Source: Elusimicrobiota bacterium
GTDB lineage: Bacteria; Elusimicrobiota; Elusimicrobia; UBA1565
Length of the DNA stretch: 64,000 nucleotides
Assembly: GCA_041661185.1 (NCBI GenBank)
Contig: JBAZUV010000001.1
Span: 224,721 to 288,720 of the forward strand
Reading direction: 5' to 3'
The position numbers and the translations under genes were made by a program. Shown piece by piece: positions 5,309 to 35,792 of this stretch (position 1 is the stretch's first letter; the number at the start of each line of letters is the position of its first letter). The notes below the pieces were generated by a model. The model made no database searches. It was given only the letters and a program-made list of their open reading frames with translations, and was not told the DNA's origin.

Positions 5309-6370
5309 ATGCACATGGCGGATGCCCTGATCTCCCCGGCGGTCGGGGGGGCGATGTGGGCGGTTTCGGGCGGGCTCATCGGCTACGGCGCTAAAAAAGT
5401 GCGGGAAGAGGCCGATGATCGGAAGATCCCGCTGATGGGCGTGCTGGGCGCGTTCATCTTCGCCGCGCAGATGATCAATTTCTCCATCCCCGGCACCGGG
5501 TCGAGCGGGCATCTCGGCGGAGGGATGATCCTTTCCATCCTGCTCGGGCCGCATGCGGCGTTCCTCGTCATGGCCTCCGTGCTCACGGTGCAGGCCTTGT
5601 TCTTCGCGGACGGGGGGCTGCTGGCGCTGGGCTGCAACATCTTCAATATGGGCTTCTTCACCTGCTTCATCGCCTATCCGCTGATCTATCGGAAGCTGGT
5701 CTGCGGCAGTCTCGATAAGAAGCGGGTGCTGCTGGGCGCCGTCCTGGCCGGCATCGTCGGCCTGCAGTTGGGGGCTTTCAGCGTGGTGCTGGAGACGGTG
5801 TTCTCCGGCGTTTCCGAACTGCCTTTCAAGACCTTCGTCTTCTTGATGCAGCCGATACACTTGGCCATAGGACTTGTGGAGGGGCTGGTCACCGCGGGGG
5901 TGGTATCCTTTGCGACGGCCGCCCGTCCGGAGATCCTGACCGCCGCCGCGGAGCGGACTCCGCTGGGCGGCAGCGTTAAAAAGGCCGCGCTGGGCATTGC
6001 CGGGGCGGCGATCCTCATTGGGACAGGGCTGAGCTGGTTCGCTTCGGCGGACCCGGACGGCCTCGAATGGGCCATGCTCAGGACCTCCGGCCAGGAGGCG
6101 CTTGAAAGCCGCGGTAAACTCCGCGGCGTTCTGGCTTCCTGGCAGGAGAAGACCGCCTTTCTGCCGGATTACAGTTTTAAAAAAGATGTCTCTGCGGCAG
6201 AGGCTGTTCTTGCCGGGAAAGCCGCGGCCGAGCCGGGCGCCGGGGGGAAGTCCGCTTGGCCCGCGGTCGATTCCGGAACCTCCGCGGCCGGGCTTGTGGG
6301 CGGCGTGATGACGCTGCTGCTGGCCGCGCTCATCGGGATCGCTTTGAAAAAACGGAACGCCGCCGCATGA
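5309..6370 (+). CDS. cbiM: ECF transporter substrate-specific component CbiM fused to a C-terminal PDGLE (CbiN-like) domain
   Basis: N-terminal MH. CbiM-like transmembrane core, then C-terminal ADPDGLEWAM. Followed by the CbiQ and CbiO genes. Confidence 0.85.
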   Translation: MHMADALISPAVGGAMWAVSGGLIGYGAKKVREEADDRKIPLMGVLGAFIFAAQMINFSIPGTGSSGHLGGGMILSILLGPHAAFLVMASVLTVQALFFADGGLLALGCNIFNMGFFTCFIAYPLIYRKLVCGSLDKKRVLLGAVLAGIVGLQLGAFSVVLETVFSGVSELPFKTFVFLMQPIHLAIGLVEGLVTAGVVSFATAARPEILTAAAERTPLGGSVKKAALGIAGAAILIGTGLSWFASADPDGLEWAMLRTSGQEALESRGKLRGVLASWQEKTAFLPDYSFKKDVSAAEAVLAGKAAAEPGAGGKSAWPAVDSGTSAAGLVGGVMTLLLAALIGIALKKRNAAA

Positions 6371-11355: not shown

Positions 11356-12090
11356 TTATTCCTTCTTTTTTCCGAACAATCCCTGGACCATGCCGGCTGC
11401 GGCTTTTCCCGCGTCCGAGATATCCTTCGTCCCGCTTTTGAGGAAGCTGCCTGTGCCCGACGCGGCCTTGATCGCGGACCCGGTAAGCGCGCCGAACATC
11501 TCCTTTGCGGCCTCTGCGATCGTGGCGCCGCCGGATTTGCGGCCGATATCGCGCAGTTCGATGTCCGGGAGAGGGACGCTCAGACTCTCGCTTCCGAACG
11601 CGCTCAGGTTCACCTTGCCGTTGGTCGCCTTGAAGAGGCCGATCTCGACCTTCGTCTCTTTCCGAGGCTTCTCGCTCTTGGGCGAGGAGGGGAAGAAGGA
11701 CTCCGCGTTCTTTTGGATGCGCGAGAGGTTGCTGCCGGATAAGCTTCCCTCAAGGGTGACTTCCAGACCGTCCACCACGATCTCCCGGATGACCACTCTG
11801 TCGGAGCCCAGGGACTTGAGGTCCACGGATAGGCGCACGGATCTGAACTCGAAGGCGCCGGGGGTCTTATAGCCGGCGGGATTCCCGATGAAGAGGCCGC
11901 GGATGCGTCCGCTCCCGGAGAACGGAGAAAGGACTACAGAATTGAGGCGCACTTCGGTCCGGGTCACTTTGGGACCCAGAGTCTCCACTGCGGTCTTCAC
12001 GATGGAGCCCAGCTTGATGTAAATGACGGCGGCCGCGATGATGAAGACCGCCAGGCAGCCTCCGGCGCAATAGAGCAGTATCTTTTTCAT
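11356..12090 (-). CDS. AsmA-like/DUF748-like membrane-anchored protein (short)
   Basis: MKKILLY start with an N-terminal transmembrane helix, followed by AsmA-like beta-rich repeats (SVDLKSLGSDRVVIREIVVDGLEV). Confidence 0.55.
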   Translation of the reverse strand: MKKILLYCAGGCLAVFIIAAAVIYIKLGSIVKTAVETLGPKVTRTEVRLNSVVLSPFSGSGRIRGLFIGNPAGYKTPGAFEFRSVRLSVDLKSLGSDRVVIREIVVDGLEVTLEGSLSGSNLSRIQKNAESFFPSSPKSEKPRKETKVEIGLFKATNGKVNLSAFGSESLSVPLPDIELRDIGRKSGGATIAEAAKEMFGALTGSAIKAASGTGSFLKSGTKDISDAGKAAAGMVQGLFGKKKE

Positions 12091-12115
12091 GCGGGGATTA
12101 GAGCATTTTCCCATT

Positions 12116-12725
12116 CTCGACCTCACCCACTTTTTAGAACAGTCGCGCAGGGGAGACTCTCTCCCTTCCCCCGCGCCCCTGGGAACCAGTTCCCACCCAC
12201 CTGTCGCACCCCGCGCATTCTGCTCGGGGCCTGAAGGCCGACGCGAGAGAGGTTTCATTTCTCGCGCCGGTGCTCCCCAAGGGGCTTACGCCCCTATGGC
12301 GCCGTCGGGATGCTTTGCATCCCAGGACGGCTGTTACCCCATTAAGGTGCGCGGGCCATGCCGCGCATCTTAATAGGGGCCCCCCTCTACGGGAGCGGGA
12401 GAGAGTCTCCCCTGCGCTCCTTGCGTTCTTCAGGGTGAGGTCGAGTCTGGAGATAGGGGCTGTTCGTTGAGGAAAGCCTCAGTCAAGACGTTTCCATCAC
12501 CCGGGGATACGGAAGTTTCAACAACGGCTTTCCTTGAGTCCGCTTCACGCGTTAACACTCGACATCACCCTAAGAAACGGCGGGTGGAGCAGAGGGGAAA
12601 CACCCTCCCGCTCCCGTGAAGGGGGCCCCGTAGCTTGGGGGGAACTGGTTCCCAGGGGCGCCGGGGGAAGGGAGGGTGTTTCCACTCTGCTCCAGGACCC
12701 GCTAGAAAAAGTGGGTGAGGTCGAG
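12116..12725. repeat. Non-coding region with three copies of an about 80-bp hairpin-rich unit (forward 12116-12194; reverse 12375-12446 and 12641-12725) plus long-range complementarity (12433-12446 with 12556-12570)
   Basis: Read directly from the sequence: ctcgacctcacccacttttt...gggaaccagttccc recurs in inverted orientation. Small stem-loops GGGAGA-CTC-TCTCCC and GGGAAC-CA-GTTCCC. No ORF with protein-like composition. Confidence 0.6.
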
Positions 12726-12781
12726 TTTCCCATTCCCTTGCATCTTGGCATCCTCTCGGTAAGGAGTTTTACCTAGGGTCC

Positions 12782-12801
12782 TGCGTATAATTTCTTATAG
12801 G
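12782..12801 (+). promoter_or_regulatory. same motif, instance b (TGCGTATAATTTCTTATAGG) upstream of tal-xfp
   Basis: Seen directly in the sequence. Confidence 0.5.
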
Positions 12802-12850
12802 CAGGATATGGGCAGGCGGCTAGGATGATATCTGGAAAGGAGACAAGAGC

Positions 12851-13972
12851 ATGAAGGACAATCCGTTGAAGCAATTAGGAAGGCTCGGCCAATCCCTCTG
12901 GCTGGACTATATCCGGAGAGATCTGATGGCGGGCGGCGGGCTCCGGCGCCTGATCGAGGAGGATGGATTGCGGGGGATGACCTCGAATCCGGCCATCTTC
13001 GAGAAAGCGATCGCGGACAGCAGCGATTACGACGAAGACATCCAAGCCATGGCGCTGAAGGGGAAGAGCGTCGGCGCGATTTATGAAGCCCTCAGCCGGC
13101 GCGACGTGCAGAGCGCCGCCGACGAGTTCCGGCCTCTCTACGACAGGACCGACGGCAAGGACGGCTATGTCAGCCTGGAGGTCAATCCCCACTTGGCGCA
13201 CGACACCCGCGGCACGCTGGATGAAGCCCGCCGGTTGTGGAGCGCCTTGAACAGGCCCAATGTCTTCATCAAGGTCCCGTCCACGGACGAAGGACTGCCC
13301 GCCATCCAGCAGCTCATCAGCGAAGGGATCAATGTCAACGTCACGCTGCTCTTCGGACTGCCCCGCTACCGGCAGGTCGCGCAAGCCTACATCGCCGGCA
13401 TCGAAGCCCGTCTGGCCCAGGGAAAGGCTGTAAGGCGGGTGGCTTCAGTGGCCAGCTTTTTTTTGAGCCGCATCGATACGCTGGCCGATCCGCCGCTGGG
13501 CAGGCTTGCCGCGCAAGGCGGCAAGGATGCAGACCTCGCGAAAAAAGCGCGCGGGCAAGTCGCCGTCGCCAGCGCGAAGCTGGCCTATCAGATATACAAG
13601 GAGATCTTCGGCAGCGATCGGTTCAAGAGGCTGGCGGCTCAGGGCGCTCTGGTCCAGCGGCTGCTCTGGGCCAGCACCGGCACTAAGAATTCCGACTATA
13701 GCGACGTGAAATACGTCGAGGAGATCATCGGGCCCGACACGATCAATACGGTCCCGCTGGAAACCCTTGAGGCCTATCGCGACCATGGAGAGCCGAAAGC
13801 CCGGCTCGAACAAGATTTCCAGGAAGCCTGCCGGGTGCTGGAGCGGCTGCCGGAACTGGGCCTCAGCATCGACGCCATAACGCAGCAGCTGGAGGACGAA
13901 GGGGTCGCGAAATTCAACAAGCCGTTCGACAAACTGATGGAGACCTTGGCGCAAAGGTCCTCCCGGAAATGA
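12851..13972 (+). CDS. tal: transaldolase (long Tal subfamily)
   Basis: [22 protein letters not shown] and active-site-Lys context. Overlaps xfp with ATGA. Confidence 0.9.
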
Positions 13973-16341
13973 ATACAAAGACTCTTGACCCGGAATCGCT
14001 CCGAAAGCTGGATGCTTATTGGCGCGCCGCCAACTATCTGTCGGTCGGCCAGATCTATCTTCGCGACAATCCTCTGCTGAAGCGTCCGCTGATGCCGACG
14101 GATGTGAAGCGCATGCTGCTGGGGCACTGGGGCACGACCCCCGGGCAGAACTTCATTTACGCGCACTTGAACCGGGCCATTAAAAAGTACGGCCTCGACA
14201 TGATCTACGTGTCCGGCCCCGGACACGGCGGCCCGGCCGTCGTGTCCAACACCTACCTGGAGGGCACTTACAGCGAGATTTATCCCGACATCAGCCAAGA
14301 TGAGGCCGGGCTGCGGAAGCTCTTCATTCAATTTTCGTTTCCCGGAGGCATTCCCAGCCACGCATCGCCGGAGTGCCCGGGCTCGATCCACGAGGGCGGC
14401 GAGTTGGGCTATTCGCTCAGCCATTCGTTCGGGGCGGCGTTCGATAACCCCGGACTCATCGTCGCCTGCGTCGTCGGCGACGGAGAGGCGGAGACCGGAC
14501 CGCTGGCCGCGGCGTGGCATTCCAATAAATTCCTCGATCCGGCAGCCGACGGCGCGGTGCTGCCGATCCTGCATCTCAACGGCTACAAGATCTCCAACCC
14601 GACTCTCCTCGCGCGCATCACCCGCGAGGAATTGGAGCAGTTCCTCCGCGGCTGCGGGTGGACGCCCTTCTTCGTCGAGGGCCATGAGCCCGGGCTGATG
14701 CATGAGGCTATGGCCGCGGCCCTTGACGCGGCGGTGGAGCGGATCAAACAGCTCCAGCAGAACGCCCGAGTCCACGGCGACCTTGCGCGTCCGCGCTGGC
14801 CGATGATCGTTCTCGCGTCGCCCAAAGGCTGGACGGGGCCGAAGAAGGTCGACGGGCTGCAGGTCGAAGGCGCCTTCCGTTCTCACCAGGTGCCGCTCTC
14901 CGACCCGGCCGCCCGCCCCGAACACCTCAAGCTGTTGGAAGATTGGCTGAGGAGCTACCGGCCGGAGGAGCTTTTCGACGCGCAGGGCCGCCTGAAGCCT
15001 GAACTGGCCGAACTTGCGCCCAAGGGCGAAGGGCGCATGGGCGCCAATCCCCATGCCAACGGCGGCCTGCTGCTGCGCGATCTGCGGCTGCCTGATTTCC
15101 GCGGCTATGCGGTGGACGTGCCCTCGCCGGGAGTGCGCGGCATCGGCGACACGCGCGTGCTCGGGCTGTTCCTGCGCGATGCGGTGAAGCTCAACAGCGA
15201 GCAGCGGAATTTCCGGGTCTTCGGCCCTGACGAGACCCTCTCCAACGGTCTGGGGGCTCTGTTTGAGGCGACCGTCCGACAATGGAACGCCGCGACGCTG
15301 CCCAACGACGAATTCCTCGCTCCGTCCGGGCGCGTGCTGGACTCGATGCTCAGCGAACACCAATGCGAGGGCTGGCTCGAGGGCTACCTGCTCACCGGGC
15401 GGCATGGACTCTTCAACTGCTACGAGGCCTTCATCCACATCATCGACTCGATGTTCAACCAGCACGCCAAGTGGCTGAAGGTCTCCTCGCAGCTGCCGTG
15501 GCGGCGGAAGATCGCCTCGCTGAACTACCTGCTGGCCTCGCATGTCTGGCGCCAGGATCACAACGGCTTCACGCATCAGGATCCCGGCTTCATCGACCAT
15601 GTCATGAACAAGAAGGCCGAGGTGGTGCGGGTCTACCTTCCGCCGGACGCCAACTGCCTGCTCTCGGTGATGGACCATTGCCTGCGAAGCCGCCATTACG
15701 TCAACGTCGTGATCGCGGGCAAGCACCCGGCGCCGCAGTGGCTGACGATGAGCGCCGCGGCCGAACACTGCGCCCGGGGCATCGGCATCTGGGAGTGGGC
15801 CGGCAGCGGCCGGGGCTCCGAGCCCGACGTGGTCATGGCCTGCTGCGGCGACGTGCCCACGCTGGAGACGCTCGCCGCCGTCTCCATCATGCGCGAGCAT
15901 CTGCCCGGCCTGAAGATCAGGGTGGTCAACGTCGTCGACCTTATGAAGCTCCAGCCGCAGACCGAGCATCCGCACGGGTTGAGCGACGCGGATTTCGACG
16001 AGCTCTTCACCCGGGACAAGCCGGTCATCTTCGCCTTCCATGCCTACCCGTGGCTGATCCACCGGCTCACCTATCGCCGCGCCAACCACGAAAACATCCA
16101 TGTTCGCGGCTACAAGGAAGAGGGCACCATCACCACGCCCTTCGACATGACGGTGCTCAACGACCTGGACCGCTTCCACCTCGTGATGGACGCCGTCGAC
16201 CGCCTGCCGCAGACCGGCGAGAAGGGCCGTTGCCTGAAGCAGCGGCTCAAGGACAAGCTCATCGAGCACAAGCGCTACATCGTCAAGCACGGCGAAGATC
16301 TGCCGGAAATAAGCGGCTGGAAGTGGGGCAGCTCCCAATGA
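13969..16341 (+). CDS. xfp: xylulose-5-phosphate/fructose-6-phosphate phosphoketolase
   Basis: 790 aa. GHWGTTPG and EGGELGY thiamine-diphosphate motifs typical of phosphoketolase. Confidence 0.95.
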
Positions 16342-16404
16342 ATCCCGTCGGCTTTGCACGCAACGGGTGAGTCGGCGGGCAGCGGACGCAGTTTTTCGAA
16401 ACGG

Positions 16405-19400
16405 CTATTTCGGCGACGCGTTTTGCGGCAGGGCTTCTCCCATCACCAGCTTTACCGCGTGGGCCGCTCCGTCGTCGACCAGCGCGATGGCGCTCGGATC
16501 GGCCGGCTTGCCGTCGAGCTCCGCGGAAACGACCCCTCGGCAGCGGTGTCCCGGGTTAGACACCGAGATCACGTAGCGCGTCCGGCCGAAGAGCCACGAG
16601 ATCTCATACTCGGACCAGGAAGAAGGGATGCAGGGGTCCAGTTCGAAGGCCGCGCCGCGGCGCTTGAGTCCCAGGATGCTCTCGAGCCCTGCGCGGTACA
16701 TCCAGCCCGCCGAACCGGTGTACCAGGTCCAGCCGGCTCGGCCGGAATGGTCGGGGTGCGCCAAGACGTCGCCGGCGAGGACGTAGGGCTCGCCCTTGTA
16801 GCGGCCGACGTCCGCGGCGCTGCGCGTGTGGTTGATGGGGTTGAGCATGTGGAAGAGCTCGGCGGCCTCGTCGCCGCAGCCCTGCTTGGCCAGGGCCATG
16901 ACGATCCAGGCGGCCGCGTGCGTGTATTGGCCGCCGTTCTCGCGCGCGCCGGGCGGGTAGCCCTTGATGTAGCCGGGCGACTGCTCCGAGCGGTCGAAGG
17001 GCGGCGTGAGCAGGAGGATGAGCCCGGCTCCGCGGCGGACGAGGTGGGTCCGCACCGCGTCCATCGCGCGCTCCGCCAGGCGCGGCGGGGCCGCGCCGGA
17101 AAGCACGGCCCAGGCCTGCGAGATCGAGTCGATCTGGCACTCGGGGCTTTGCGCCGAGCCCAGAGCGACGCCGTCGTCGTCGTAAGCGCGCCGGTACCAC
17201 TCGCCGTCCCACGACTGCTCGAGCACCGCCGCCAGGCGGCTCGCTTCGGCTCGGCAGCGCTCGGCTCGGGGGGAGTCTCCGCGGGACTCGCACAGGGGCG
17301 CGAAGTCGCCGAGCACTGCATATAGGAAAAAGCCGAGCCAGACGCTTTCGCCCCGTCCTTCACGTCCCACGCGGTTCATGCCGTCGTTCCAGTCGCCGTT
17401 GCCCATCAGCGGCAGGCCGTGCGCGCCCGAGGTGAGTCCGCGGTCGAGCGCGCGCGTGCAGTGCTCGAAGAGCGAGGCTCTTTCTGCACAGACGCTCGGC
17501 CGGCAATAGCTTTCCTGCTCGCCGGGCGCCAGCAGCGGGGACTCCAGGAACGGGACGCTCTCGTCGAGTATCCCGGAGTCTCCCGTCGTCTTCACGTAGT
17601 GCGCGACGGCGTAGGGAAGCCAGAGAAGGTCGTCGGAGCAGCGGGTGCGCGTGCCCCGGCCGCTGGGCGGATGCCACCAATGCTGGACGTCGCCCTCCAG
17701 GAACTGACGGGCGGCCGCGCGCAGGAGGTGCTCCCTCGCCAGGTCCGGCCGGGCCAGCATGAGAGCCAGCGCATCCTGAAGCTGGTCGCGAAATCCAAAG
17801 GCGCCGCCGGGCTGGGAGTAGCCGGTCCGCGCCCAGAGGCGGCAGCCGAGGTTCTGATAGAGCAGCCAGCGGTTCATCAGGAGATCGAAGGAGTCATCGG
17901 GCGTTTTGACCTGCACCGCACCGAGGGTATTCTCCCAGCCTTGGCGCACGCTCTCGAGCGCCGCGCGCGCCGCCGGGACGCCGCCGTGTCGGACGATCAA
18001 TTCACGGGCGTGCGCCGCGTCCTTTCCCTGGCCGAGGAGGAAGACCATGCGGCGCGTTTCGCCCGGCAGGAGCTTCACCGGGACCTGCAGCGCCGCGCAC
18101 GGATCGAGGCCGGCCCCGAAGCGTCCCGAGAGCGTTTCCCGGAATAGCGCCGCCGGACGGGAGAGCGAGCCGTTTCGCCCGAGGAAGGAGGTCCGGTCGC
18201 CCGAAGACGACTTCACCGCGTCGCTGGAATGGAGGAAGGCCGTTCGTCCCGCGAAGTCGTTGTTCCAGGCGTTGGAGGCCAGGATCGCCCCGGTCTGCGC
18301 GTCTCGCTGGGTTAGGACGTTCAGGTGCCGGCCGTCCTGAGGAGGCCCCAGCGACCACTCGTTGTAGGCGAAGATGCTCAATGCGCAGGGCGAGCCGCTC
18401 TCATTGCTCAGCGTCAGGAGAGAGAATTTCACGGGGTCCGCCGCGTCCACGAAGATCTCCAGGCGATGACGGATCCCGTGGACGGCGCGGTCGAAGCTCG
18501 TGACTCCGGCCGCGTGGCGGATCACGAAGCGGCCGCCTTCGCTCGTCCGGGGCAGCGGGCCCGGCGTCGGAGACCAGACCGCGCCCGTTTTGTCGTCGCG
18601 GACGAAGATCGCCTCGGAGGTCGGGTCGCAGACCGGGTCGTTGGCGAAGGGCGTGAGCCGATTCTCCCGGCTGTTTTCGGACCAAGTGTATGACGAGCCC
18701 GATTCCGTGACGACGGTTCCGAAAGCCGGGCCGGCGAGGACGTTGGCCCAGGGCAGCGGCGTCCCCTGGGCGCCTTCGAGGACGATGGCGTACTCGCGTC
18801 CGCCTTCCGTGAAGCCGCCCAGACCGTTGGCCATGACCATCGGCGGCGCCTCCGGCGGCATGCAGGGCTTGCCGTTTCGCGGGGCCCGCCGCGTCGGGGG
18901 CGCGGGCTCGCGGGACGCGCGCACGGTCCAATCCGGCGAGGGCCGGTCGAGCTGCTGCGAGAGGCCTCCGCGGTCGCTGCTGAGGATGGCCCGCGCGACG
19001 GCCTGGAGCAGGAGGCGTTCGGCTTCGGGCATGCGGTCCGCGCGGAGCAGGTATGCGCCGCCGGGCCGGTGCTTCCACGTCCGCCAGGGACCGTTGTCGA
19101 GCAGCGCCGTCAGCTGGGCGTGGACCTCGTCGTAATAGCTCACGGGATGCTCGTTGAGGATCACGACGTCCGCGAGCAGGCCCTTGAGCCGCCAGTACTC
19201 CTGGGCCTGGAGGATCTGGCGCGCGAGCGCGAGCCCGTCCTGCGAGAGGACGCGCACCAGCACGATCGGCAGGTCGCCCGAGATTTCGTGCGGCCAGAGT
19301 CCCGATTGGCCCAGCGTGCTGCGCGTCATGACCTCGGGAGCGGCGCGCAGAGAGGCGTCGTGGTAGAGGACGCGCGAGGCGAGGCGGTCGAAAAGGAGCG

Positions 19401-22400
19401 TTTCCTCGATCGAAAGGCCGAGGTGGCGCCGGTTGCTCTGGGCGTGCGCGAAGGCCATGGCGAAGGTGCGCGCCGCGGCGCTGGGATCGCGGTAGCGCTG
19501 GACGAGCGCCAGGGCCATCTCCCGGCTCGACGCCGCGCCCGTGGCGAAGGAGAGCCTCGCGACGGCGCCTGGCGCCAGGAGGATGCGCCGGCGCAGGCTG
19601 ACGATGGGATCGAGCAGGACGCCGGTCGTTCCGGTCAGCGGGCGCCCATCGAGCGCCTGCGGGTCCTCGGGACCGCGTCCGCGTCCGAGGAAGCGGGCCC
19701 GATCGCTCTCCCACTCCATGGGGCCTTGCGCGCGTCCGTCGAGACTAAGGACATGGACGGCCCATGCCGGCGCGTCTTCCGGAGAGCGCGATCGTCGCCG
19801 GCAGAGCAGCGCGCCGGCGTCGGCCAGATATTCCGACTCCACGAAGAGCTTGCCGAACGCCGGATGAGCGAGATCGTCGGCCGGCGGAGCCAGGACGATC
19901 TCGGCATAGCTCGTGACCTCGAGCTCGCGTGTCCGCTCGTCGTGGTTGGTCACCGTGAGGCGGCGGACCTCGACGTCGTCCTCGGGAGAGACGGCGATCT
20001 CCAGCTGGGTGGCGATTCCGTCGTCGCGGCGAAGGTAGGTCGCCTTGTCGATGGAGAAGGTGACGAGGGGGTTTTCTCCCTCCGTGCCGATCGGATGATG
20101 CGCCGTCGACCAGACGCGGCCGCTGCGCACGTCGCGCAGGTAGAGGAACTGGCTGCCGGGGTCGCGCGTCGCGTCCGAGCGCGTCCGGGTGATCGCTCGT
20201 CCCGCGCAGAAGCTGGCGCCGCCGCCCGCGTTGGTGACCACCACGGTGTATCGGCCGTTCGAGAGGAACTGGGCGTGAGGGAAGGTCGTGTAGGCGGAGC
20301 GGAATCTGCGCACCGCCGCCGCGGACACGGGCGCGGATATCCGCGTTCCGTCGTCCGGCCGCGGGCGGATGATCAGCGCGTGGCGCGGCGCGCGCTCCTG
20401 CAGGAGGAGCTCGGTGGCCCGCACGCGAGGATCGGCGTGGAATCGCTCCACCATCCGCCTTCCGTCGAGGACGTTGGCGATGGCGGTCAGCGCCATGCCC
20501 TGGTGATGGGCCATGTACGTCTTCACGATCGCGCCGGGAGGTCCGCGCCGGTCCGGGATCCGCGCGGTCGGCTCGTCGCTGCCGCGCGGGGTGTAGTCGA
20601 CGGCATCGAAATAGCCGTATTCGCCCTCGAGTCCCTCCGCTTTCAGGCGCCGCAGGTTGCCGGCGGCCGCCGCGGGGTCGACCAGGGCGGCCAGCGCCGC
20701 GGCGTAGGGCGCGATCACCAGTTCGTCGCCGAGGCCGCGCTTGAGGCCCAGGCCGGGCACGCCGAAGGCCTTGTATTGATAGTTGTCGTGGCGGTCGACG
20801 AGCGTGTAGGCGCATTCGGAGATCCCCCACGGCACGCCGCGCGCCTTCGCGTAGTCCTGCTGAGCGCGCACCGCCATCCGGCACGACTCATCGAGCAGGG
20901 TTCCCGGATATCTGCGCATCACGAGCAGCGGCATCAGATATTCGAACATCGTCGCGCTCCAAGACAGCAGCGTCGGCGTGCCGTGCACGTTCGTCACGGA
21001 GCGTCCCAGGTGGAACCAGTGCGCTTCCGGCAGGTCTCCCTTGGCGATGGCCAGGAAGCTCGCCAGACGCGCCTCCGAGGCGAGCAGATCGTACGCGGCG
21101 ACGTCGAGCTTTCCCGGCCCCTCCGCGTCCGCCGCGCGATACCCGATCGCGAGCAAGCGCCGCTGGGGGTCATAGAGGAAGCGGAAATTCATCGCGTCGC
21201 CGAACGCGGCGGCGCGCGCCGCCAGGCTCTCGAGCTTCGCGCGCGCGTCGAGGGGTTCGAGGGTCGCGGAGGGATCCAGGCGCGCGAGCTCCCGGAGCCC
21301 TTCGGCCAGGGCGATGAGCGCGCCGTAGAGATTCCCGCTGTCGACGCTGGAGACGTAGCGGGGAGTGAGCGCGGCCAGACTGCGCGTGTCGTACCAGTTG
21401 AACAGGTGGCCCTCGATGCGCTCGAGGCCCTCCATCGTCGTCAGCGCCGCGTCGATCTTCTCCAGCAATTCCGGGGTCTTGATGAAGCCGAGATCGTGCG
21501 CCGCGAGCGTCGAAAGCAGGCCGAAGCCGATATTGGTGGGAGAGGTCCGGTGCGCGAGCTTCGGCTCGGGAGAGAGCTGATAGTTGTCCGGCGGCAGGCC
21601 GTGGTCTTCCGGTCCCATGAAAGCCGCGAAATAGCCCCAGGTCTTGCGGGCCGCGGCGCGCAGGAACTCCCGGTCCTCCTCGCCGAGCTCGGCGTCCTCC
21701 CGCAAGATCGGCCGGCTCAGCACGCACGCGATCATCGGCGCGGCGGCCCACAAGACGAGCAGCGGCGCGGCCGCGGGCAGGGCACAGGGCCGGAGGATCG
21801 CGACCAGGGCCGCGCCGGCCAGCGCGATGATCGGACTCGCCGCCATCGCGATGAAGAACGACCGGGCGGCGGATGCTCCGGCGGGGCTCACGCCGCGCGC
21901 GGCGCTTGCGGCGGAGGTCTCCCACTCGAGCAGTCCTTGATGCGTGATCAGGACCCGCGCGAGCGTGACCAGGACGGCGTTGGCCGCCTCATGCGCCTGG
22001 TCGGCCAGCAAAACGAGCTGGAGCGCGATCCGCGCCAGGACGCATGCCGCATCTTCCCAGAACACGCGAAGGAAGCCTTGCCACGACTGCCGCGGCCTCG
22101 GGCCGTTGAGCGTCTCGATGGAAAGCAGGTACAACGGGAACGCGATGGCCGCAATGACGGCCGCGGTCCAGCGTCCGGGGCTTCCCGGCAGGAGCGTCCA
22201 CGCGAAGAGGAGAAGGGCGAGTGTCGCGGGAGCGACGAGGCTTCGGCGAAGGTTGTCGAGGATCTTCCACCGGGCGATCGGCGAGAGGCGGTTTCGCCGC
22301 AGGCCGGTGCGCGTCGGGACGAAGGGGAAGAGCCATGCCAGGAGCTGCCAGTCGCCGCGCATCCAGCGGCGCGCGCGGCGCGCGTACGCCGGATAGGTCG

Positions 22401-24714
22401 AGGGATAATCGTCGACGACCTCCACGTCGGTCACCAGCGCCGTGCGCGCATGAAGCCCTTCGAAAAGGTCGTGGGACAGGAGCGCATTCTCGGGCACGCG
22501 GCCGTTGAGCGCCGCTGTGAAGGCGTCGACGTCGTAGAGCCCCTTGCCGGTGAATATCCCTTCGCCGAAGAGGTCCTGATAGGCGTCCGAGACGGCCGTG
22601 GTGTAGGGATCGACGCCGGTGTGGCCGGCGTAGAGGCGCGCGAAGCGCGAGCCGGCGGCGCTGGAGCTGGTTACGCTGACGCGCGGCTGGAGGATCGCGT
22701 AGCCTTCAGTGATCCGTCCGAGCTTTTCATCGTAGTGCGGCCGGTTGAGCGGGTGCGCGATGATGCCGATGAGTTTTTTTGCCGCGTCGCGCGGCAGGCG
22801 CGTATCGGAGTCGAGGGTGATGCAGCAGCGCACGCGCGGGAGCGCCGACAAGTCCCCCGTCTGGACGGTGAAGCCCGTGTCCTTCGCCCCGCGCAGGAGG
22901 GCATTGAGCTCCTCGAGCTTGCCGCGCTTGCGCTCCCAGCCCATCCAGGACCCTTCGCCGGGGTTCCAGCGGCGCTCGCGATGGAGCAGGAAGAAGCGGT
23001 CTCCCCGCCCTTCGCTCAGGCGCGCGTTGAGTTCCGCGATGCCGCTGCGGGCGGCGTCCAGGATGGCGTCGTCGTCCGGCGTTTCTTTCGCGTCCGCGTC
23101 CGTGAAGTCGCTGAGGATCGCGAAATGGATCCGGGGATCGAGGTTGCCCAGAGCAAGGACCTCGATATGCTCGACGAGCTCCCGGGTTCCCTCGACGCTC
23201 GTCAGAAGGGTGGGCACCACGACGAGGGTCCGAGCGTCATCGGGGATCCCCGCCAGGAGGTCCAGGCGCGGCAGGCGCCGCGGCGGCGCGAACCACGCGG
23301 CGAGGCGCTGGATGAGGGCGATGGCCGCATCGCTGGCCGGCAGGAGCAGCAGCGCCGCGAGGACGAGCCGCATGCGGATCGAGCCTCCGTCGCTTCCGAC
23401 AAAAGAGAGCGCGGCCGCGATCAGCGCGCCGGTCGTCAGCGAGATCGCGCTCAGATAGACGAACCCGGCGTGGGCGAACGCCGCGCGCCTCAAGCGCTGC
23501 AGCGGGCCGGGATGCCAGGCTACGTCCTCTTCAAGGGTGCGGCGGCCCTTTCCGATCAGGTGCCAGCCCACGTGCGCGGCGCGCGCGGACGGCCCCCCGG
23601 TCTCGGCCGCCAGGCGGGCGCTTTCGACGGTCCTCAGGGCCACGCGCACCTGGGCTTCCGCGGCGGGCTCGGCCAGTTCCTCGATGGACTGCCGGTAGCG
23701 GTCCCGGCTCAAGAAATCCATGCGCGGGTAGATGCCGGCGGGATCGCGCCTGAGGACGCGCTCGACGAGACTCACGGCCTCGACGTACTCGCTCCAGTCC
23801 AAGGCGGAGACCAGGCGCATGCTGGTGATGACGTTGGCCGTGGAGACCTGGGAGACGGCCTCTCGCTGGTGTTCGCAGCGGATCGCTTCCTCGGGCGTCA
23901 TCGGCAAGGCGGCCAGATGCGCGTCGAGGCCTGCGCGAACGGCTTCAAGGCGGGGCCCATACTCCCGCACGCGCTGGAGGAGCTGCACGATCTGCGCGAG
24001 ATGGAGCTCTCGGGGCAGCGGCGGCGGGACTCCCTTGCCCGCCGCGTCGATCCGGGCCACATACGCGTCCGCGGCCCGCCGCGCCGCGCGGGCGGCCAGG
24101 ATCTCCTCGGTCAGGCGCCGCAGGTTCTCGATGAGGGCCAGCTTCAGCATGCTCGGCCATGCCCAGAGCTCTCCGATCGTCAGCGGGGCGACGGTCTGGA
24201 AGCTGTCCAGGAAGCGCACGAGCTGAGGGCGGTCCAGGCGGCTGTCGCTGTGGCGGATGAGCTCTACGGCCAGGGCGTAGACGCGGGCGTGGCCGGCAAG
24301 CTCGCGCGAGGCGAGCTTGGGCAGCTCGCGGTAGTAGGCGCGCGGGAGGTTTTGGTGCACTTCCCGGATCTCGGAGACCGCCAGGTAAAAATTATCCAGG
24401 AGCCACTCCGCCGCCGGAGTGACGAACTCGCCTTGGTGCACGTCGTCGGCGAGCGTGCGGTAGGCCTCGCGCAGGAGGCGGGCGTTGTCCTCGAAACGAG
24501 GGAAGACGCTGCGCGCCGCGCCTCCGGAGGGGTCCACCGTGAACCGGGCCGCCAGCGCGCGGGCCCGCTCCTCCAGGCGCTCGATGCTGAGCAGTTCATC
24601 GCGCAGAGGCTTCTCGGCCCTGGGGGCGGAGCGGAACCTTCCGCCGAAAGATCCTGAGGTGAACGCTGCGAAGAAGGAGTTCTCAATCCGACCAAAGTCA
24701 GAGTTTCGCAGCAT
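16405..24714 (-). CDS. cyclic beta-1,2-glucan synthase (Cgs/NdvB/ChvB-like: N-terminal membrane GT84 domain + C-terminal GH94 phosphorylase-like domain)
   Basis: 2769 aa. DSDTRLP and RRWMRGDWQ glycosyltransferase motifs, multiple transmembrane blocks, and a C-terminal GH94-type [13 protein letters not shown]. Codon bias produces long antisense shadow ORFs. Confidence 0.85.
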
Positions 24715-25753: not shown

Positions 25754-25850
25754 GTGATCGTCGGGGCGCACGCCGCGGCCTTCTCCCGGCAGGCTGGCTT
25801 CCCTCAAGAAATAGCTCCTTTGGCTGCCTGCGGAGTTTTACTTCCTGCCT

Positions 25851-25870
25851 TGCGTATAATTCCGCATTGG
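25851..25870 (+). promoter_or_regulatory. same motif, instance e (TGCGTATAATTCCGCATTGG) upstream of the AAA ATPase gene
   Basis: Seen directly in the sequence. Confidence 0.5.
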
Positions 25871-25962
25871 CACAATATGGGTGTAGTAAATGGCAAGAAA
25901 TGCTTATAAATCAAGTAGCATATTGACTTTGAGCAAATTTGCTCATTATAATGAGTTAAATT

Positions 25963-27168
25963 ATGACATTGCCTAAATTCAACCGCCCCATCCTTAAAAA
26001 AATACGAACACGGCTGCAGGAAGATCGTAGATTCATCCAAGTCCTGATCGGCCCGCGTCAAGTGGGAAAGACCACGCTGGTCCGACAATTCCTGGAGGAC
26101 GCTGATATTGCGCACCACTACGCATCCGCGGACGAACCATCACTGCACGACCGGACGTGGATCGAAGCGCAGTGGGAGATCGCTCGCTTGCGGGCCAAGC
26201 ATGCGGACAAGCGCGGCGCGCTGTTTGTTTTGGACGAGGCGCACAAGACGACGCATTGGTCGGAAGCGGTCAAGCGGCTCTGGGATGAGGATACCGCTTC
26301 GGGCATGAATCTTAAAGTCGTTCTGCTCGGGTCATCTCCTCTGCTGATACAAAAGGGTTTGACGGAGAGCCTTGCCGGCCGCTTTGAACTCATCCGAGTT
26401 CCGCATTGGTCGTTTGCCGAAATGAAGGAGGCTTTCGGCTGGAGTCTGGATCAATATCTCTATTTCGGCGGTTATCCAAGCTGCGCGGAGCTCGCCGCGG
26501 ACGAGGAGCGCTGGCGCCGATATCTGCAGGATTCGTTGGTGGAGACGACGCTGTCTCGGGACATCCTGCTGCAGACTCGCGTCGATAAACCGGCATTGCT
26601 GCGGCAGCTTTTCCGCCTGGGCTGCGACTACTCGGGACAGATACTCTCCTATCAAAAGATGTTGGGACAACTGCATGATGCCGGGAATACGGTCACGCTG
26701 GCGCACTACCTCGAGCTGCTCTCAGGCGTCGGCATGCTCACGGGACTGCAAAAATATTCCGGAACCCGTTTGCGGCAGCGAGGCTCCAGCCCAAAATTCC
26801 TCGTGCTCAATACGGCCCTCATGACGAGCGGCGCCGACCAAACCTATGGCGCGGCTCGCGAGAATCGCGACGTATGGGGAAGGCTCGTGGAATCGGCGGT
26901 GGGCGCGCATCTGGTCAATGGCCTTTCAGGAACAGGCACGGAAGTGTTCTATTGGCGCGAAGGCAATCGCGAGGTGGATTTCGTGCTGAAAGGGCACGGC
27001 CGCGTCACGGCCGTTGAGGTCACCAGTTCGCGCCGCAAGGATTCCTTGCCCGGCATGGCGGCGTTCGCCGAGGAGTTCCATCCGCAGAGGCAGCTTCTGG
27101 TCGGCGGGCAAGGGATCCCGCTTGAGGAATTCTTGTCGGCTCCCGTCGAGAAATGGGTGGCGCCTTGA
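25963..27168 (+). CDS. AAA+ ATPase (AAA_14 + DUF4143 architecture)
   Basis: Walker A GPRQVGKTT, Walker B VLDEAH. AT-rich start region; first gene of the lower-GC segment. Confidence 0.8.
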   Translation: MTLPKFNRPILKKIRTRLQEDRRFIQVLIGPRQVGKTTLVRQFLEDADIAHHYASADEPSLHDRTWIEAQWEIARLRAKHADKRGALFVLDEAHKTTHWSEAVKRLWDEDTASGMNLKVVLLGSSPLLIQKGLTESLAGRFELIRVPHWSFAEMKEAFGWSLDQYLYFGGYPSCAELAADEERWRRYLQDSLVETTLSRDILLQTRVDKPALLRQLFRLGCDYSGQILSYQKMLGQLHDAGNTVTLAHYLELLSGVGMLTGLQKYSGTRLRQRGSSPKFLVLNTALMTSGADQTYGAARENRDVWGRLVESAVGAHLVNGLSGTGTEVFYWREGNREVDFVLKGHGRVTAVEVTSSRRKDSLPGMAAFAEEFHPQRQLLVGGQGIPLEEFLSAPVEKWVAP

Positions 27169-27257
27169 CGGCTGCCGGGCACGCATAAGCGAGTTTATCG
27201 ATTCCAGCAGTAAACTCGCCATATTTGATGGGCTGGAAGGTCGACCGCAAGTTAAAA

Positions 27258-27294
27258 GGAGAACCGGAAGCATTCGCTTCCGGTTCTCCTTTTG
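27258..27294 (+). terminator. rho-independent terminator (14-bp perfect stem GGAGAACCGGAAGC/GCTTCCGGTTCTCC + TTTT)
   Basis: Seen directly in the sequence downstream of the AAA ATPase gene. Confidence 0.8.
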
Positions 27295-27501
27295 AGTTAT
27301 CAGATAAACTGGCGGGCCCGATGGGGGCAATTTCCTACTGGTTTGAAGCGGTATATTGTTCCTTTGGTCCAGGAAGTGCATTTTATCCCTTCTCTGACTT
27401 TGTCTTGGCCCATCGAATTGAAGCGCATCCCCAATGGCGAAAAGGTCATCGTTGAGGTCTTGACTTGCCCTGTCCCTCAATTTGAGGTAGTCCTTATGTG
27501 A
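27292..27501 (+). CDS. AbrB/MazE-like (swapped-hairpin) small protein, paralog of 32775..33071
   Basis: PIELKRIPNGEKVIVEV resembles the AbrB looped-hinge motif and aligns with PVRLRRITNGEKVIWQT in the second copy. Confidence 0.35.
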   Translation: MSYQINWRARWGQFPTGLKRYIVPLVQEVHFIPSLTLSWPIELKRIPNGEKVIVEVLTCPVPQFEVVLM

Positions 27502-27505
27502 AAAG

Positions 27506-27545
27506 TTTCCAATCCCGTCGTCCCCTAAGACGATGGGGGCAATTG
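27506..27545 (+). repeat. att-like repeat R2 (tRNA-Asp 3'-end-like TTCCAATCCCGTCGTCCCC + TAAGACGATGGGGGCAATT)
   Basis: Matches 18 of 20 nt of the sense 3' end of tRNA-Asp (TTCGAATCCCGTCGACCCC). Other copies: R1 (partial) 27313-27332, R3 33006-33044, R4 33158-33193. Confidence 0.5.
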
Positions 27546-27564
27546 CGCTAAAAGGGGGTATGCC

Positions 27565-28008
27565 GTGACTAAGCCGAAGGCGGGCCAGGATTATCTTACG
27601 ACTACTGGATTGCCGGTCCGTTTCCTGAAACGGGACAGCGGATGCATGCTTTTGCAGAGTCTTTGGACGGATAATCGGTTTCTTGTTCCTGAGACCTATC
27701 CGCTTAAGCCCTTGAAAGAGAAGCCGTCTGGCCCGGATCTGCGCTCCACTCCGTACAAGGAGTCCACACGGCCGACGCCGGAGGAGAGGAATCGGCCACT
27801 GGCCCCTGTCATTGATGCTCTGCTGATGGAGGGCAGGTTGACCATGAAAGGCCTCGCGAGAGAGGTCAGGCGGCGGGCCAGTGCGGCGTGTTGGGGGAAG
27901 GACGTGCGGGCCAATATTCGATCCCGGATAAGCTGGTTGCAGAAGCGGGGGATGGAATTCCTCCGAGACGGTGGCGGCCGGCTTTGTATTCAGCGGAAGT
28001 GCGAATAG
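27565..28008 (+). CDS. hypothetical protein (possible winged-helix regulator)
   Basis: 147-aa ORF in the island. No confident domain. Confidence 0.35.
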   Translation: MTKPKAGQDYLTTTGLPVRFLKRDSGCMLLQSLWTDNRFLVPETYPLKPLKEKPSGPDLRSTPYKESTRPTPEERNRPLAPVIDALLMEGRLTMKGLAREVRRRASAACWGKDVRANIRSRISWLQKRGMEFLRDGGGRLCIQRKCE

Positions 28009-28055
28009 CTGACTATATTAAGGCGTGCTGGTTAGGTTCTCGAATCTGGAATATT

Positions 28056-29339
28056 CTACTTCTCGCCACGCTTGAAGTTAAGATATTCCAGATCATAAGC
28101 ATCTTGGATGTTCTCGCCCTTCGTGAATTTTCGCAAGATTGCCTTAAATGCCGAATCAGTGGTTCCGAACCAGTGTAAGTAGTATCGCGACTTGATGACG
28201 CTTAGGGCTGATTGGCCCAGCGGATTGTAGTGTAGTCGGCACCAAAGCGCATGATGGAAAGTCAGTCCAGTATGCGCCAAGTTATCGCTTTTCCACTGAG
28301 ATATGATGATCAGATTCTGGTAATGGAAGAAATTCACTGAAGCAAGAAGATTTTTCGTGCGAATGTATTTCACCACGGAGAACGGTCGACTGGTATTGGG
28401 TGCCACATCTGGAGCATCCGTAGCCCGCAAATCCTCAAACGAAGGTGGATAGTTAAAAAATACATGGTAAAGAGAATGCCCGACGGCTGTTGCCTGGCCA
28501 AGATTTTTTATTTCAAAAGGGATGTCAAAACGGTGGGATTCGTTTTTCCACTCGGCTTGAACGGGTGCTGCCGCCGGAATTACATCCAAAATTGGGCGTT
28601 GTGAGTAGAGATATACATAAAGGGAACTCGCAACACCGACGATTGCTGCGACGTATCCCCAGGCTTTGGAATGAAAGAGGGAGATGAATTTGTCACATAA
28701 GCCGCCCTGCTTGGTAGGACTTCTGGAATACTTTTTGGCTTCCTGGAGTGCTGATATCCATTTGGCATATTGGCACCGAAGGAGCTTTATGCCCACAGTT
28801 TCATCGCCAACCTTAATCTCGGCTTTTCTGGAAACCTCCTCAAGTAGTTTGCTTTCTCTACCGCAGTAGCGTTCGATGAGGGCAATAACCTTAATGCGAT
28901 AGCTGCCCACAATCCCAATCTCATCTTTTACATCCCGATATGAGGATGATTGCTCCCTGGTGAGTTCACGTATCAAGTCATCGATTTCGGACGGGGGTTG
29001 GGACGCCTTGCCCGGGAGTGCCTCTAGATTTGTGCGGATCAAAGCGAGGCATCTATCAATAGCGTTTCCAAGAGGGCGAAACTGTGCGAGCGTGAAGTAT
29101 CCCCTGCCTTGAAAATCGGTTGTCCCGCTGCTTTGCGGGATTTCTAAATTCTCTATATCCCCAAAAAGATGGGGATCAAGTTCTTTTAGGCGTGCTATTG
29201 TTCGGATCGCTCTTTCAAAAAAAGGCCTGTGCGAATCGGGATCAAAGTACCTTCCACCAGAGCCGAACACTTGTCCAGAGAGATGGCGGTGTAATGTGTC
29301 AAGCTCTGGAAGATGCTTTTGGGCAATTTCGCTATTCAC
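28056..29339 (-). CDS. hypothetical protein with one central TM helix; last gene of the defense-like operon
   Basis: 427 aa, GTG start 4 nt after the DGQHR gene stop. TM segment WGYVAAIVGVASSLYVYLY. Low GC. Confidence 0.5.
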   Translation of the reverse strand: MNSEIAQKHLPELDTLHRHLSGQVFGSGGRYFDPDSHRPFFERAIRTIARLKELDPHLFGDIENLEIPQSSGTTDFQGRGYFTLAQFRPLGNAIDRCLALIRTNLEALPGKASQPPSEIDDLIRELTREQSSSYRDVKDEIGIVGSYRIKVIALIERYCGRESKLLEEVSRKAEIKVGDETVGIKLLRCQYAKWISALQEAKKYSRSPTKQGGLCDKFISLFHSKAWGYVAAIVGVASSLYVYLYSQRPILDVIPAAAPVQAEWKNESHRFDIPFEIKNLGQATAVGHSLYHVFFNYPPSFEDLRATDAPDVAPNTSRPFSVVKYIRTKNLLASVNFFHYQNLIIISQWKSDNLAHTGLTFHHALWCRLHYNPLGQSALSVIKSRYYLHWFGTTDSAFKAILRKFTKGENIQDAYDLEYLNFKRGEK

Positions 29340-29343
29340 GAAT

Positions 29344-30891
29344 CTATTCTCTGAAAAGTGGATGTGTCTTTTTGATCTCCGCGACCATTTCTCGATGGAA
29401 TCTCTTCCAGCCCTGAGAGCCTGTGTAGTTCTGTTGGAGCTTGCTGGTTTCCCAGTTCTTCCATCCTGTTTTTAGGGGTTGGAGGTAGCTCTTAATTGTT
29501 TCGTGATCGAGAGTCCCGCCATGTGTCCGCAGCATAGACTTCAGGAGTTTTAGGAAAGCAGATATCCCCCGGTTAGTAGCTATGATGTAACGGTTGGGAT
29601 CTGCCCATTCCTTTTTGAACAAGCTTTGAATTGTTGAGAAATAAGTGCGAAGAGCCGTGTTGTATTCATCGGCGGTATTTGCGGTATAGTGCTTTCTTAG
29701 CAAGCCGCGGGGGCCCAAGAGTCCTTTGAGATCGTAGCCAGCGAAGCCTTTAAGCGTAATACGCTGGTCGCCGACATCTAATAGTCTAATGGCCTTCTTG
29801 AAGGGGCTGATCTTGTTGAGTTCTACGACGACGCGGATGGCCATGAGTTCATTGTCCGCTTGGCAGAGGACATCATCCTTGGTGTATTTGAGATATGCGA
29901 CAAGATTTGCATCCATCCTTCGGGAGTTGTCATTGATCGCGATAAACGCATCGCGCTTTTGTGAGTCGTCTAACTCGCGAAGCCCAGTCACAAGAACGCC
30001 GTAATTGCGCTGGGTTATCTCATCGCAATGGCTGAAGCCAAAAATCCGATGTTGGCCATCAATAATCTCCATCGAGGCATATTCGAGCGGGATGCTGAGT
30101 GCGACAAATCGCGAATCGCATCTGGAAAAATTGACAGGGTTGTCATGTTCGTTTTTGAACCTATCAGCATTCTTGAGATTATGGGAGACAACCTGTGGGC
30201 TTAGATGAAGCACGACGTTTGTTGGAAGGATAGAGTCTCTTTGAGAAAGAAATTTGGCAATGCTTGGCAACCGCTTGGTCGATAGCATGCGCTGGTAGGC
30301 ATTTGCGTCGCCTTGAGCTCGGCGAAATATGGCGCAGGTTTTGAGGAGCTTTTCAGCAGGCATTGAGAAGAGGAAGAGTTCGGTGGTTGAGTGCTTATTG
30401 GGTTGGGTAAGTCGGACAGCCGGGACCGTGAGTGTGGCTTTCTCCTCTCTTGTTGTTATGCCTAGGGAATGAATGATTTCATATCTGGACCACTTCCCAA
30501 TAGCGTTTGCGATGGCCTCGAAATATGCCAGCTCATCGAGCCCCCAAACCGTATCACCATTTTCTCTGGCGAACTGCCGATCTGCTTCGGTAATCTCGTG
30601 TTCTGTTGAAATAAATAGGACGGCATCCGCTTTCAGTTTCTTTTTGATAACGTCGTAATCGTGAACATGAGTCGAAAAAGACTCTTTGAGTTCCTTCCGT
30701 GCCTTATTCCACCCTACGATAGATATATCGAGTTCCTCTTCGGTAGCAAAAAGGTCGAGAGTCCGTTTCTTGCCACGAATATCCACCTCCTTTTCTGCGG
30801 GGTCGCTGGAGTGCGGCTGAGTTTTGAATCCGGCTTTGGAGAAAAGTTGCCACACGCGTTTGTTTAGGTGCGAACCTTTATTAATTGGCAT
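29344..30891 (-). CDS. DGQHR-domain (DndB-like, ParB/Srx superfamily) protein with N-terminal nuclease-like region
   Basis: Literal DGQHR motif (MEIIDGQHRIFGF). 515 aa. Lies 5 nt downstream of the restriction endonuclease gene. Confidence 0.7.
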   Translation of the reverse strand: MPINKGSHLNKRVWQLFSKAGFKTQPHSSDPAEKEVDIRGKKRTLDLFATEEELDISIVGWNKARKELKESFSTHVHDYDVIKKKLKADAVLFISTEHEITEADRQFARENGDTVWGLDELAYFEAIANAIGKWSRYEIIHSLGITTREEKATLTVPAVRLTQPNKHSTTELFLFSMPAEKLLKTCAIFRRAQGDANAYQRMLSTKRLPSIAKFLSQRDSILPTNVVLHLSPQVVSHNLKNADRFKNEHDNPVNFSRCDSRFVALSIPLEYASMEIIDGQHRIFGFSHCDEITQRNYGVLVTGLRELDDSQKRDAFIAINDNSRRMDANLVAYLKYTKDDVLCQADNELMAIRVVVELNKISPFKKAIRLLDVGDQRITLKGFAGYDLKGLLGPRGLLRKHYTANTADEYNTALRTYFSTIQSLFKKEWADPNRYIIATNRGISAFLKLLKSMLRTHGGTLDHETIKSYLQPLKTGWKNWETSKLQQNYTGSQGWKRFHREMVAEIKKTHPLFRE

Positions 30892-30896
30892 AGGGG

Positions 30897-31442
30897 CTAT
30901 ACGTCAATTAGGATGACCTTAACGGGCACGGCCGGGAAGTGGCGCTTGAGGCGTTCAATGTCGTAAATCAGTTGCTCGCCATAGGAGACGCCCGTGGACA
31001 TCTGCTTATGCATCGCATGGCAGGGCACGATCTCAATGCCGACATCTGCCTTGTTCTCATTGAAGAAATACTGAAACTTGGCCATGTCGTAGAACATGAA
31101 CGCATACTTTCCGAACTGAACCTCGACGAGGACTCGATTCTTGACGAAGTCTACCTGCTTGAAGGCCCCCTCCACACGTATGGGGTAGTTCGGAAGCTCA
31201 ATGGTGTAAGTGTCGCGAAGCTCCTTGTAGCCTCTGGCGTGGAACGCGGAATGAAACAGCGCGTTGATCTCCTTCGGGCTATAGAGGAGTTCGCCCGGCA
31301 TGGTCTTCTCTTTGCTGACCTTCGATTTCTTGAGATTCTTGATGCTAGCAATGACGTCGTCGATTTCTTTCTCAAGTTTCGGATAGCGCACCTTTAGAAT
31401 TTCGCTACCTCCCAGGTGGGAGTACTCGTAGGCTTTATGCAC
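30897..31442 (-). CDS. type II restriction endonuclease, BglII-like
   Basis: VLVEVQFGKYAFMF matches the BglII catalytic-core pattern (TLVEVQFSNYPFLL). Overlaps the methyltransferase gene by 8 nt. Confidence 0.65.
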   Translation of the reverse strand: MHKAYEYSHLGGSEILKVRYPKLEKEIDDVIASIKNLKKSKVSKEKTMPGELLYSPKEINALFHSAFHARGYKELRDTYTIELPNYPIRVEGAFKQVDFVKNRVLVEVQFGKYAFMFYDMAKFQYFFNENKADVGIEIVPCHAMHKQMSTGVSYGEQLIYDIERLKRHFPAVPVKVILIDV

Positions 31443-35743: not shown

Positions 35744-35792
35744 GACCCACACCCCAACTCGGCATCACCGAAGGGAACAGCGGGTGGCGGAG

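Follow-up and report, generated by a model that had tools for sequence, protein, structure and literature searches.

Bacterial hairpin MITEs, among them Correia of Neisseria, ERIC/IRU of enterobacteria, RUP of pneumococci and Nezha of cyanobacteria, are small, non-coding, intergenic elements with terminal inverted repeats and a target-site duplication; they are present as dispersed copies, have hairpin potential over the whole element and lack a transposase of their own. The repeat family described here is similar in these respects, the duplication being present in two of its four complete copies. It differs from them in its host, an Elusimicrobiota MAG, and in its unit, a 490–610-bp composite in which two inverted hairpin modules and a spacer provide four 'ends'. 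The flanking duplication is 9 bp long, in contrast to the TA of IS630-derived MITE families, and searches of Rfam and of plasmid and phage collections found nothing similar to the family in sequence.

A second comparison is with RAYT-mobilised REPINs and BIME clusters, inverted hairpin doublets with common inter-REP spacings of 71 and 110 bp that combine conserved ends with compensatory stem changes (PMC3116915). The family shares the doublets, the conserved ends and the compensated stems, as well as clusters of alternating orientation and restriction to a lineage, but it has flanking duplications, tips that are not REP-like palindromes, larger modules, fewer copies and no RAYT among the genes scanned. 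Composite transposons and eukaryotic foldback elements offer an architectural analogy: a central segment stands between two inverted mobile modules, and the whole is moved by its outer ends. In the present case, the modules are non-coding hairpins instead of IS, and the centre is a 110-nt non-coding spacer instead of cargo genes. The IS200/IS605-derived palindrome-associated elements (PATEs) are likewise non-autonomous and hairpin-rich; they are not known to have terminal inverted repeats or a target duplication, both of which are present here.

Anatomy of the DUF748–tal intergenic region

The window, that is, the whole 64-kb stretch of DNA analysed, contains a 760-bp gap between a DUF748/AsmA-like gene and tal, in which long inverted repeats are found. 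The features of this region, together with a further family member in the window, are as follows.

11356–12090, minus strand: DUF748/AsmA-like gene (Pfam), start codon at 12090, 244-aa protein
12107–12115: left 9-bp target-site duplication TTTCCCATT (repeat finder), within the 25-nt leader from the DUF748 start codon to the element
12116–12725: whole composite element, 610 bp, with 20-bp perfect terminal inverted repeats CTCGACCTCACCCACTTTTT / AAAAAGTGGGTGAGGTCGAG
12116–12202, plus strand: arm U1 ('R2' type), outer end of hairpin module E1 (arm alignment)
12203–12373: long apical region of module E1, with four small hairpins (alignment with other copies)
12374–12446, minus strand: arm U2 ('L2' type), inner end of module E1, pairing 21/21 with U1
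12447–12556: 110-nt spacer between modules E1 and E2, ~90% conserved in six of six composite copies
12557–12632, plus strand: arm U4 ('L1' type), inner end of module E2 (arm alignment)
12633–12725, minus strand: arm U3 ('R1' type), outer end of module E2, pairing with U4 (25 nt, 96%) or alternatively with U1
12726–12734: right 9-bp target-site duplication TTTCCCATT (repeat finder)
12851–13972, plus strand: tal, transaldolase (Pfam)
35757–35903, plus strand: solo hairpin module 'V' of the same family, 147 nt, −98 kcal/mol, z = −7 (self-search of the window)

The first-pass annotation of this region had reported an about 80-bp unit in three copies, one forward (12116–12194) and two reversed (12375–12446 and 12641–12725). 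These repeats are real, with limits at 12116–12202, 12374–12446 and 12633–12725, but a fourth unit, forward at 12557–12632, had been missed; the units are in fact four homologous arms in the order forward, reverse, forward, reverse (U1, U2, U4, U3), forming two hairpin modules of one composite. A 13-nt tip, CTCGAC(C/A)TCACCC, is common to the four arms, and this 13-mer occurs eight times at ≤2 mismatches, against 2.6 expected.

Module E1 consists of U1, the long apical region and U2, while in module E2 arm U4 is followed directly by U3. The two modules stand head-to-head around the 110-nt spacer, and the outer ends of the element thereby form a perfect terminal inverted repeat. This outer pair, already recognised in the earlier annotation, matches at 20/20 positions (12116–12135 / 12706–12725) and at 80% over 94 nt. 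Further inverted repeats join the arms at 12145–12165 / 12397–12417 (21/21, U1/U2), 12163–12202 / 12632–12671 (40 nt, 85%), 12374–12420 / 12586–12632 (47 nt, 81%), 12585–12609 / 12670–12694 (25 nt, 96%) and 12424–12446 / 12557–12579 (23 nt, 83%). The pairing formerly proposed between 12433–12446 and 12556–12570 was recovered with 12557–12570 (14 nt at 93%), and both of the tight hairpins noted before are present, GGGGCTTACGCCCC at 12281–12294 and GGGATGCTTTGCATCCC at 12309–12325. The 9-bp direct repeat TTTCCCATT, which is absent from the first-pass annotation, touches both ends of the element and matches at 9/9 positions.

The arms are mosaic: their middle segment is common to U1 and U2 and to U4 and U3, whereas the inner segment is common to U1 and U3 and to U2 and U4. 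As a consequence, two alternative folds are open to the locus, a pair of adjacent hairpins or a single nested foldback, the latter being the minimum-energy form. The fold of 12100–12740 reaches −384 kcal/mol, compared with −261 ± 7 in shuffles (z = −16.6), and pairing in this region is far beyond chance.

In agreement with the earlier view that the region holds no protein-like ORF, none of its reading frames has a Pfam match. Its failure to match a known structured-RNA family also stands after an Rfam scan: with Rfam 15, two tRNAs alone reach the gathering threshold in the window, and at E ≤ 10 the element region yields only sub-threshold generic miRNA-hairpin matches (13–27 bits, against gathering scores of 37–100).

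The element is inserted upstream of both genes, at 25 bp from the DUF748/AsmA-like start codon and 125 bp from tal. Excision of 12116–12734 leaves an intergenic region of ~141 bp, which fits the upstream gaps of 73–145 bp seen for DUF748 orthologues in related Elusimicrobia (66–73% identity, non-syntenic with tal). The divergent DUF748–tal promoter region would thus have been ~140–150 bp long before the insertion. With the element only 25 bp from its start codon, the DUF748 promoter must sit inside the element or beyond it. A scan of 11950–12950 for promoter and terminator consensus found no site, so that an outward promoter in the element is unsupported.

Just upstream of tal, at 12763–12812, lies a 50-nt block, GGAGTTTTAC-N9-TGCGTATAATT...ATATGGG. 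Its second copy (25832–25881, 76% identity) is found upstream of an AAA_14/DUF4143 ATPase gene (25963–27168). The window has no further copy of the block, nor do the family loci; it may serve as a promoter or operator common to both genes, or be a small repeat of another kind. The gene downstream of tal encodes an XFP phosphoketolase and overlaps the tal stop by 4 nt at its start, and convergent to this pair is the gene of a 2769-aa giant protein of GH94/glycoamylase type that looks like a cyclic beta-1,2-glucan synthase (stretch 12851–24714).

Beyond these genes, the stretch 25963–32463 is a low-GC3 islet with the AAA_14/DUF4143 ATPase, a 427-aa ORF without assignment, a DndB-like protein, a BglII-like restriction endonuclease and an N6/N4 DNA methylase. 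It adjoins two tRNA genes (33264–33339 and 34181–34252) and is probably an acquired restriction-modification or defence islet. Two apparent ORFs of odd composition on the minus strand at 59752–62649 look like antisense frames of plus-strand genes and were rejected.

Dispersed copies and the proposed insertion model

An HMM of the arms, run over the window, recovers exactly six arms, four in 12116–12725 and two in the solo hairpin V. The latter is located between bioY (35135–35743) and a CHASE2 Ser/Thr kinase gene (35990–39205), and its closest relative is found at 563–708 of the metagenome locus L149. The kinase is one of two CHASE2-domain sensors in the 64 kb, the other (53332–55410) being fused to an adenylate/guanylate cyclase with TPR.

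Metagenome contigs were scanned with a tight right-arm pattern, which returned 40 loci. Of these, 29 are chance matches and 11 hold 28 true family arms; all 11 are contigs of the JGI metagenome Ga0172379. The arms in these loci are usually clustered in groups of two to five with alternating orientation. By BLAST, large pieces of the window element are found again in the Ga0172379 loci at 87–97% identity, with unrelated flanks, and similarity to other copies stops exactly at 12116/12117 and 12724/12725. Another assembly (L115/L167), with a contig in ENA, was compared with the window over 21,122 bp, element included, and matches it at 100% identity. Copy number appears modest, at roughly a dozen loci per metagenome population.

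Multiple alignment reveals the same composite (R1 arm, L1' arm, spacer, L2 arm, loop, R2' arm) in five Ga0172379 loci. It is complete in L124 and L133 and cut by locus ends in L135, L144 and L145; in all six composite copies, the window included, the boundaries are base-exact. The same tips are found in all copies. Composites measure 490–610 bp, with the window copy at 610 bp, and other copies 96–495 bp. What chiefly sets the window copy apart from the other composites is its E1 loop, which has ~137 nt more than the ~35-nt loop found in the others; in L124 and L133, it is the other loop that is enlarged, by 26 nt. Reading frames are broken by indels between copies.

Four copies are complete at both ends, the others being cut by locus ends. 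Flanking duplications are found in two of the four, namely in the window (9/9) and in L124, where the repeat (GCCTTGAAT / ACCTTGAAT, 8/9) occupies the same register; they are absent in L133 and L154. In L154, positions 6152–6247 are a 96-bp derivative that has kept just the two termini. Solo modules are present in L128, at two sites in L149 and in the window (V). At L125 1–140, the long apical region is joined to an R1 arm, while in the window the same region stands beside the R2 arm, a case of further mosaicism. The stretch 128–708 of L149 (Ga0172379_10002493) contains an E2-type module, a spacer that starts family-like and diverges over ~260 nt, and then a V-type module, and looks like a degenerate composite. 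The V-type modules of L149 and the window have an extra conserved left flank of ~13 nt, CCCACACCC(C)AA, in common, which suggests that their true left boundary may lie outside the tip.

All copies are intergenic, and their neighbours are unrelated ordinary genes or a tRNA: a PAS histidine kinase with tRNA-Val, a Mur ligase, an SLT transglycosylase, a DUF900 hydrolase, a YaaH-family protein, a radical-SAM protein, MFS transporters, a T2SS ATPase, an M20 peptidase and a glycoamylase. The copies occur in both orientations, some behind stop codons, ahead of a tRNA or antisense to the ends of genes.

No new copy was found in the 6.8 kb further left of the window. No gene record was found for the 244-aa DUF748 protein, nor for the ORFs at the two ends of the window, which probably start elsewhere than the called genes. 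In ~149 kb from more distant relatives and unrelated tal carriers there are no family arms, from which the family appears to be lineage-restricted; homologues of tal (L157–L160, 82% identity) and of the DUF748 gene (L161–L166, 66–73%) are non-syntenic and likewise devoid of arms. Plasmid, phage and viral collections gave no match to the family. The loose pattern CTCGRCMTCACCN{115,145}GGTGAKGYCGWG, run on genome contigs, was not specific enough for high-GC genomes: none of its 114 matching loci, which come from unrelated taxa, holds a family arm by nhmmer. In L157–L159 (JGI), from unrelated organisms, tal is followed at a distance of 2 kb by an IS110-family transposase gene (DEDD_Tnp_IS110 + Transposase_20) that is unconnected with the hairpin family.

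On this evidence, 12116–12725 is most probably one inserted copy of a non-autonomous transposon (MITE) of composite, foldback build that is moved in trans. We base this classification on a size below ~600–700 bp without coding capacity, 20/20 terminal inverted repeats and dispersed copies with unrelated flanks. One of the two readings offered by the first-pass annotation, a non-autonomous element with terminal inverted repeats or a MITE cluster, is supported by sharp termini, the 9-bp duplication, a second member in the window and at least 11 further loci with unrelated flanks. That annotation had also held that dozens of copies across the genome, with clear target-site duplications and no expression, would make a simple MITE family; dispersed copies and a 9-bp duplication are essentially what we find, the duplication being present in two of the four complete copies.

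The element would consist of two related hairpin modules (~170–330 bp), each with the tip CTCGAC(C/A)TCACCC, set head-to-head around the 110-nt spacer. A transposase encoded elsewhere would bind the terminal repeats and move the whole unit, and the same enzyme may sometimes move a single module or a deletion derivative. A staggered cut of the target would produce the 9-bp duplication, and the copy in the window would have landed at TTTCCCATT in the divergent DUF748–tal promoter region. The length of the duplication points to a DDE-type enzyme, as 9-bp duplications are typical of IS1-, IS4-, IS256- or ISAs1-type DDE enzymes. Mobility is read from the distribution of copies, as no empty orthologous site was obtained.

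No transposase or RAYT gene is adjacent to the copies. In ~160 kb of relevant genome inspected, neither a transposase nor a RAYT was found among the 27 of ~47 window ORFs scanned or the 20 genes beside family loci. An autonomous partner with the family termini CTCGACCTCACCC...GGGTGAGGTCGAG was also not found among the scanned window ORFs or the genes beside the 11 family loci (~95 kb).

The sequence TTCCCATT occurs five times in the window (12108, 12727, 35910, 31520 and 53365), against 1.6 expected. Three of the five sites adjoin family elements. Two of them belong to the duplication pair, and the third lies 7 nt beyond the solo hairpin V, where TTCCCATT runs into TTGACA. Given this third site, a preference for certain targets or flanks could account for part of the 'duplication', and the repeated occurrence of TTCCCATT may indicate a target-site or promoter-proximal preference.

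Stem conservation and strand bias of the modules

Ten E2/V-type modules were aligned for covariation and the copies compared with 500 shuffles. Their consensus hairpin has 57 pairs, with 91% of cells paired, and double-sided changes are found in 8 of the 57 pairs; the observed covariation measures are reached by 0–5 of the 500 shuffles. When the partners are slid by 1–3 columns, pairing falls to 44–58%. The two V-type copies show three fully compensated changes in a perfect 29-bp stem. In 15 of 15 modules tested, the L->R' strand folds 1–18 kcal/mol better than its complement, with more G.U pairs. Because the copies share ancestry, these counts of compensated changes and strand bias are not independent. 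Within the window, the better-folding strand of each module is the sense strand of the gene that it faces.

The compensatory stem changes and the strand asymmetry of folding go beyond what a plain DDE-type MITE model requires. Together with the G.U excess and the occurrence of TTCCCATT next to promoter-like sequence beside elements, they hint at strand-specific structural selection. The hairpin modules would then be units under such selection, either a REPIN-like replicator moved as a folded single strand or RNA hairpins co-opted by the host as leader, terminator or processing modules for neighbour genes, a reading that we regard as doubtful. We found no description of a strand-specific hairpin system in Elusimicrobiota. 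Compensated stems, strand-biased folding and a composite of two modules all have precedents and are only mildly unusual.

The compensated-stem signal of the family resembles that reported for REPINs, which also combine conserved ends with compensatory changes (PMC3116915). A REPIN/BIME-like system, in which single-strand-folded doublets are replicated by a single-copy HUH (RAYT-type) transposase and the locus is a REPIN-like cluster of alternating orientation, would account for ends that are conserved around a variable yet still paired interior, for the three compensated changes of the V-type copies, for the uniform strand bias with its G.U pairs, for the clustering of arms and for their confinement to one lineage. 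Several features of the family make it unlikely all the same. Flanking 9-bp duplications are present at two copies in the same register, while we know of none made by HUH/RAYT-type transposition. REPs are imperfect palindromes of 20–40 nt with a conserved 5' GTAG-like head, but the 13–20-nt tip CTCGACCTCACCCACTTTTT has neither an internal dyad nor a 5' GTAG-type head. Moreover, modules of 150–330 nt are far larger than REPINs, no Y1 transposase was found among the genes scanned in the window and beside family loci, and copies number apparently in the tens rather than the hundreds.

Further alternatives and implications of the family

Palindromic repeats spread by recombination or segmental duplication, now immobile, could also give rise to similar sequences at several loci. 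Such an inert relic would agree with the two complete copies that lack duplications (L133 and L154), with the mosaic arms, which suggest recombination or gene conversion between copies, and with the finding of no transposase among the genes scanned. The base-exact boundaries of all six composite copies are where this model fails. The calculated probability of the duplications arising by chance in a fixed register is ~4e-6 for the 9/9 match and ~1e-4 for the 8/9 match, and copies that are 90–97% identical stand in unrelated flanks. We therefore consider a relic very improbable.

The other reading offered by the first-pass annotation was a large structured ncRNA. As a cis-regulatory leader or ncRNA specific to tal or the DUF748 gene, with the repeats as helices of one fold, it would draw on the extreme stability of the predicted fold (z = −16.6), on the compensatory changes in the stems and on the agreement, in the window, between better-folding strand and sense strand. 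The distribution of the family speaks against it: copies of either orientation have unrelated genes as neighbours and are found behind stop codons, ahead of a tRNA and antisense to the ends of genes, and DUF748 orthologues in relatives are without the element. The build of the copies argues in the same direction, with a unit bounded by terminal inverted repeats and a duplication, arms that are mosaic between copies, loops that differ by indels of 26–137 nt and a derivative (L154 6152–6247) that retains the termini alone. Generic miRNA-hairpin noise apart, there is no Rfam match even at E ≤ 10, and a dedicated structured RNA is the least probable of these explanations. An integron attC site (no core-site consensus, no adjacent integrase), a CRISPR array (no same-orientation spacing) and a retron (no adjacent RT) were rejected on anatomy, and a riboswitch or leader for want of an Rfam match.

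Read as a MITE, the family is previously undescribed in Elusimicrobiota. An oversized, hairpin-dense intergenic region is explained as an insertion, and what had looked like a lead to a new large structured RNA is thereby set aside. The repeat family, which had not been annotated before, is now defined by its termini, its modules, its composite form and its 9-bp duplication. In a poorly studied, uncultured phylum, this aids the annotation of MAGs, the spotting of assembly breaks and strain typing by presence or absence of copies. The compensated stems and strand-biased folding provide a small natural test case for the upkeep of hairpins in palindromic mobile repeats. At the locus itself, the insertion parts the DUF748/AsmA-like gene from its likely promoter region and places 610 nt of hairpins upstream of tal, and it may thereby affect the expression of both genes.
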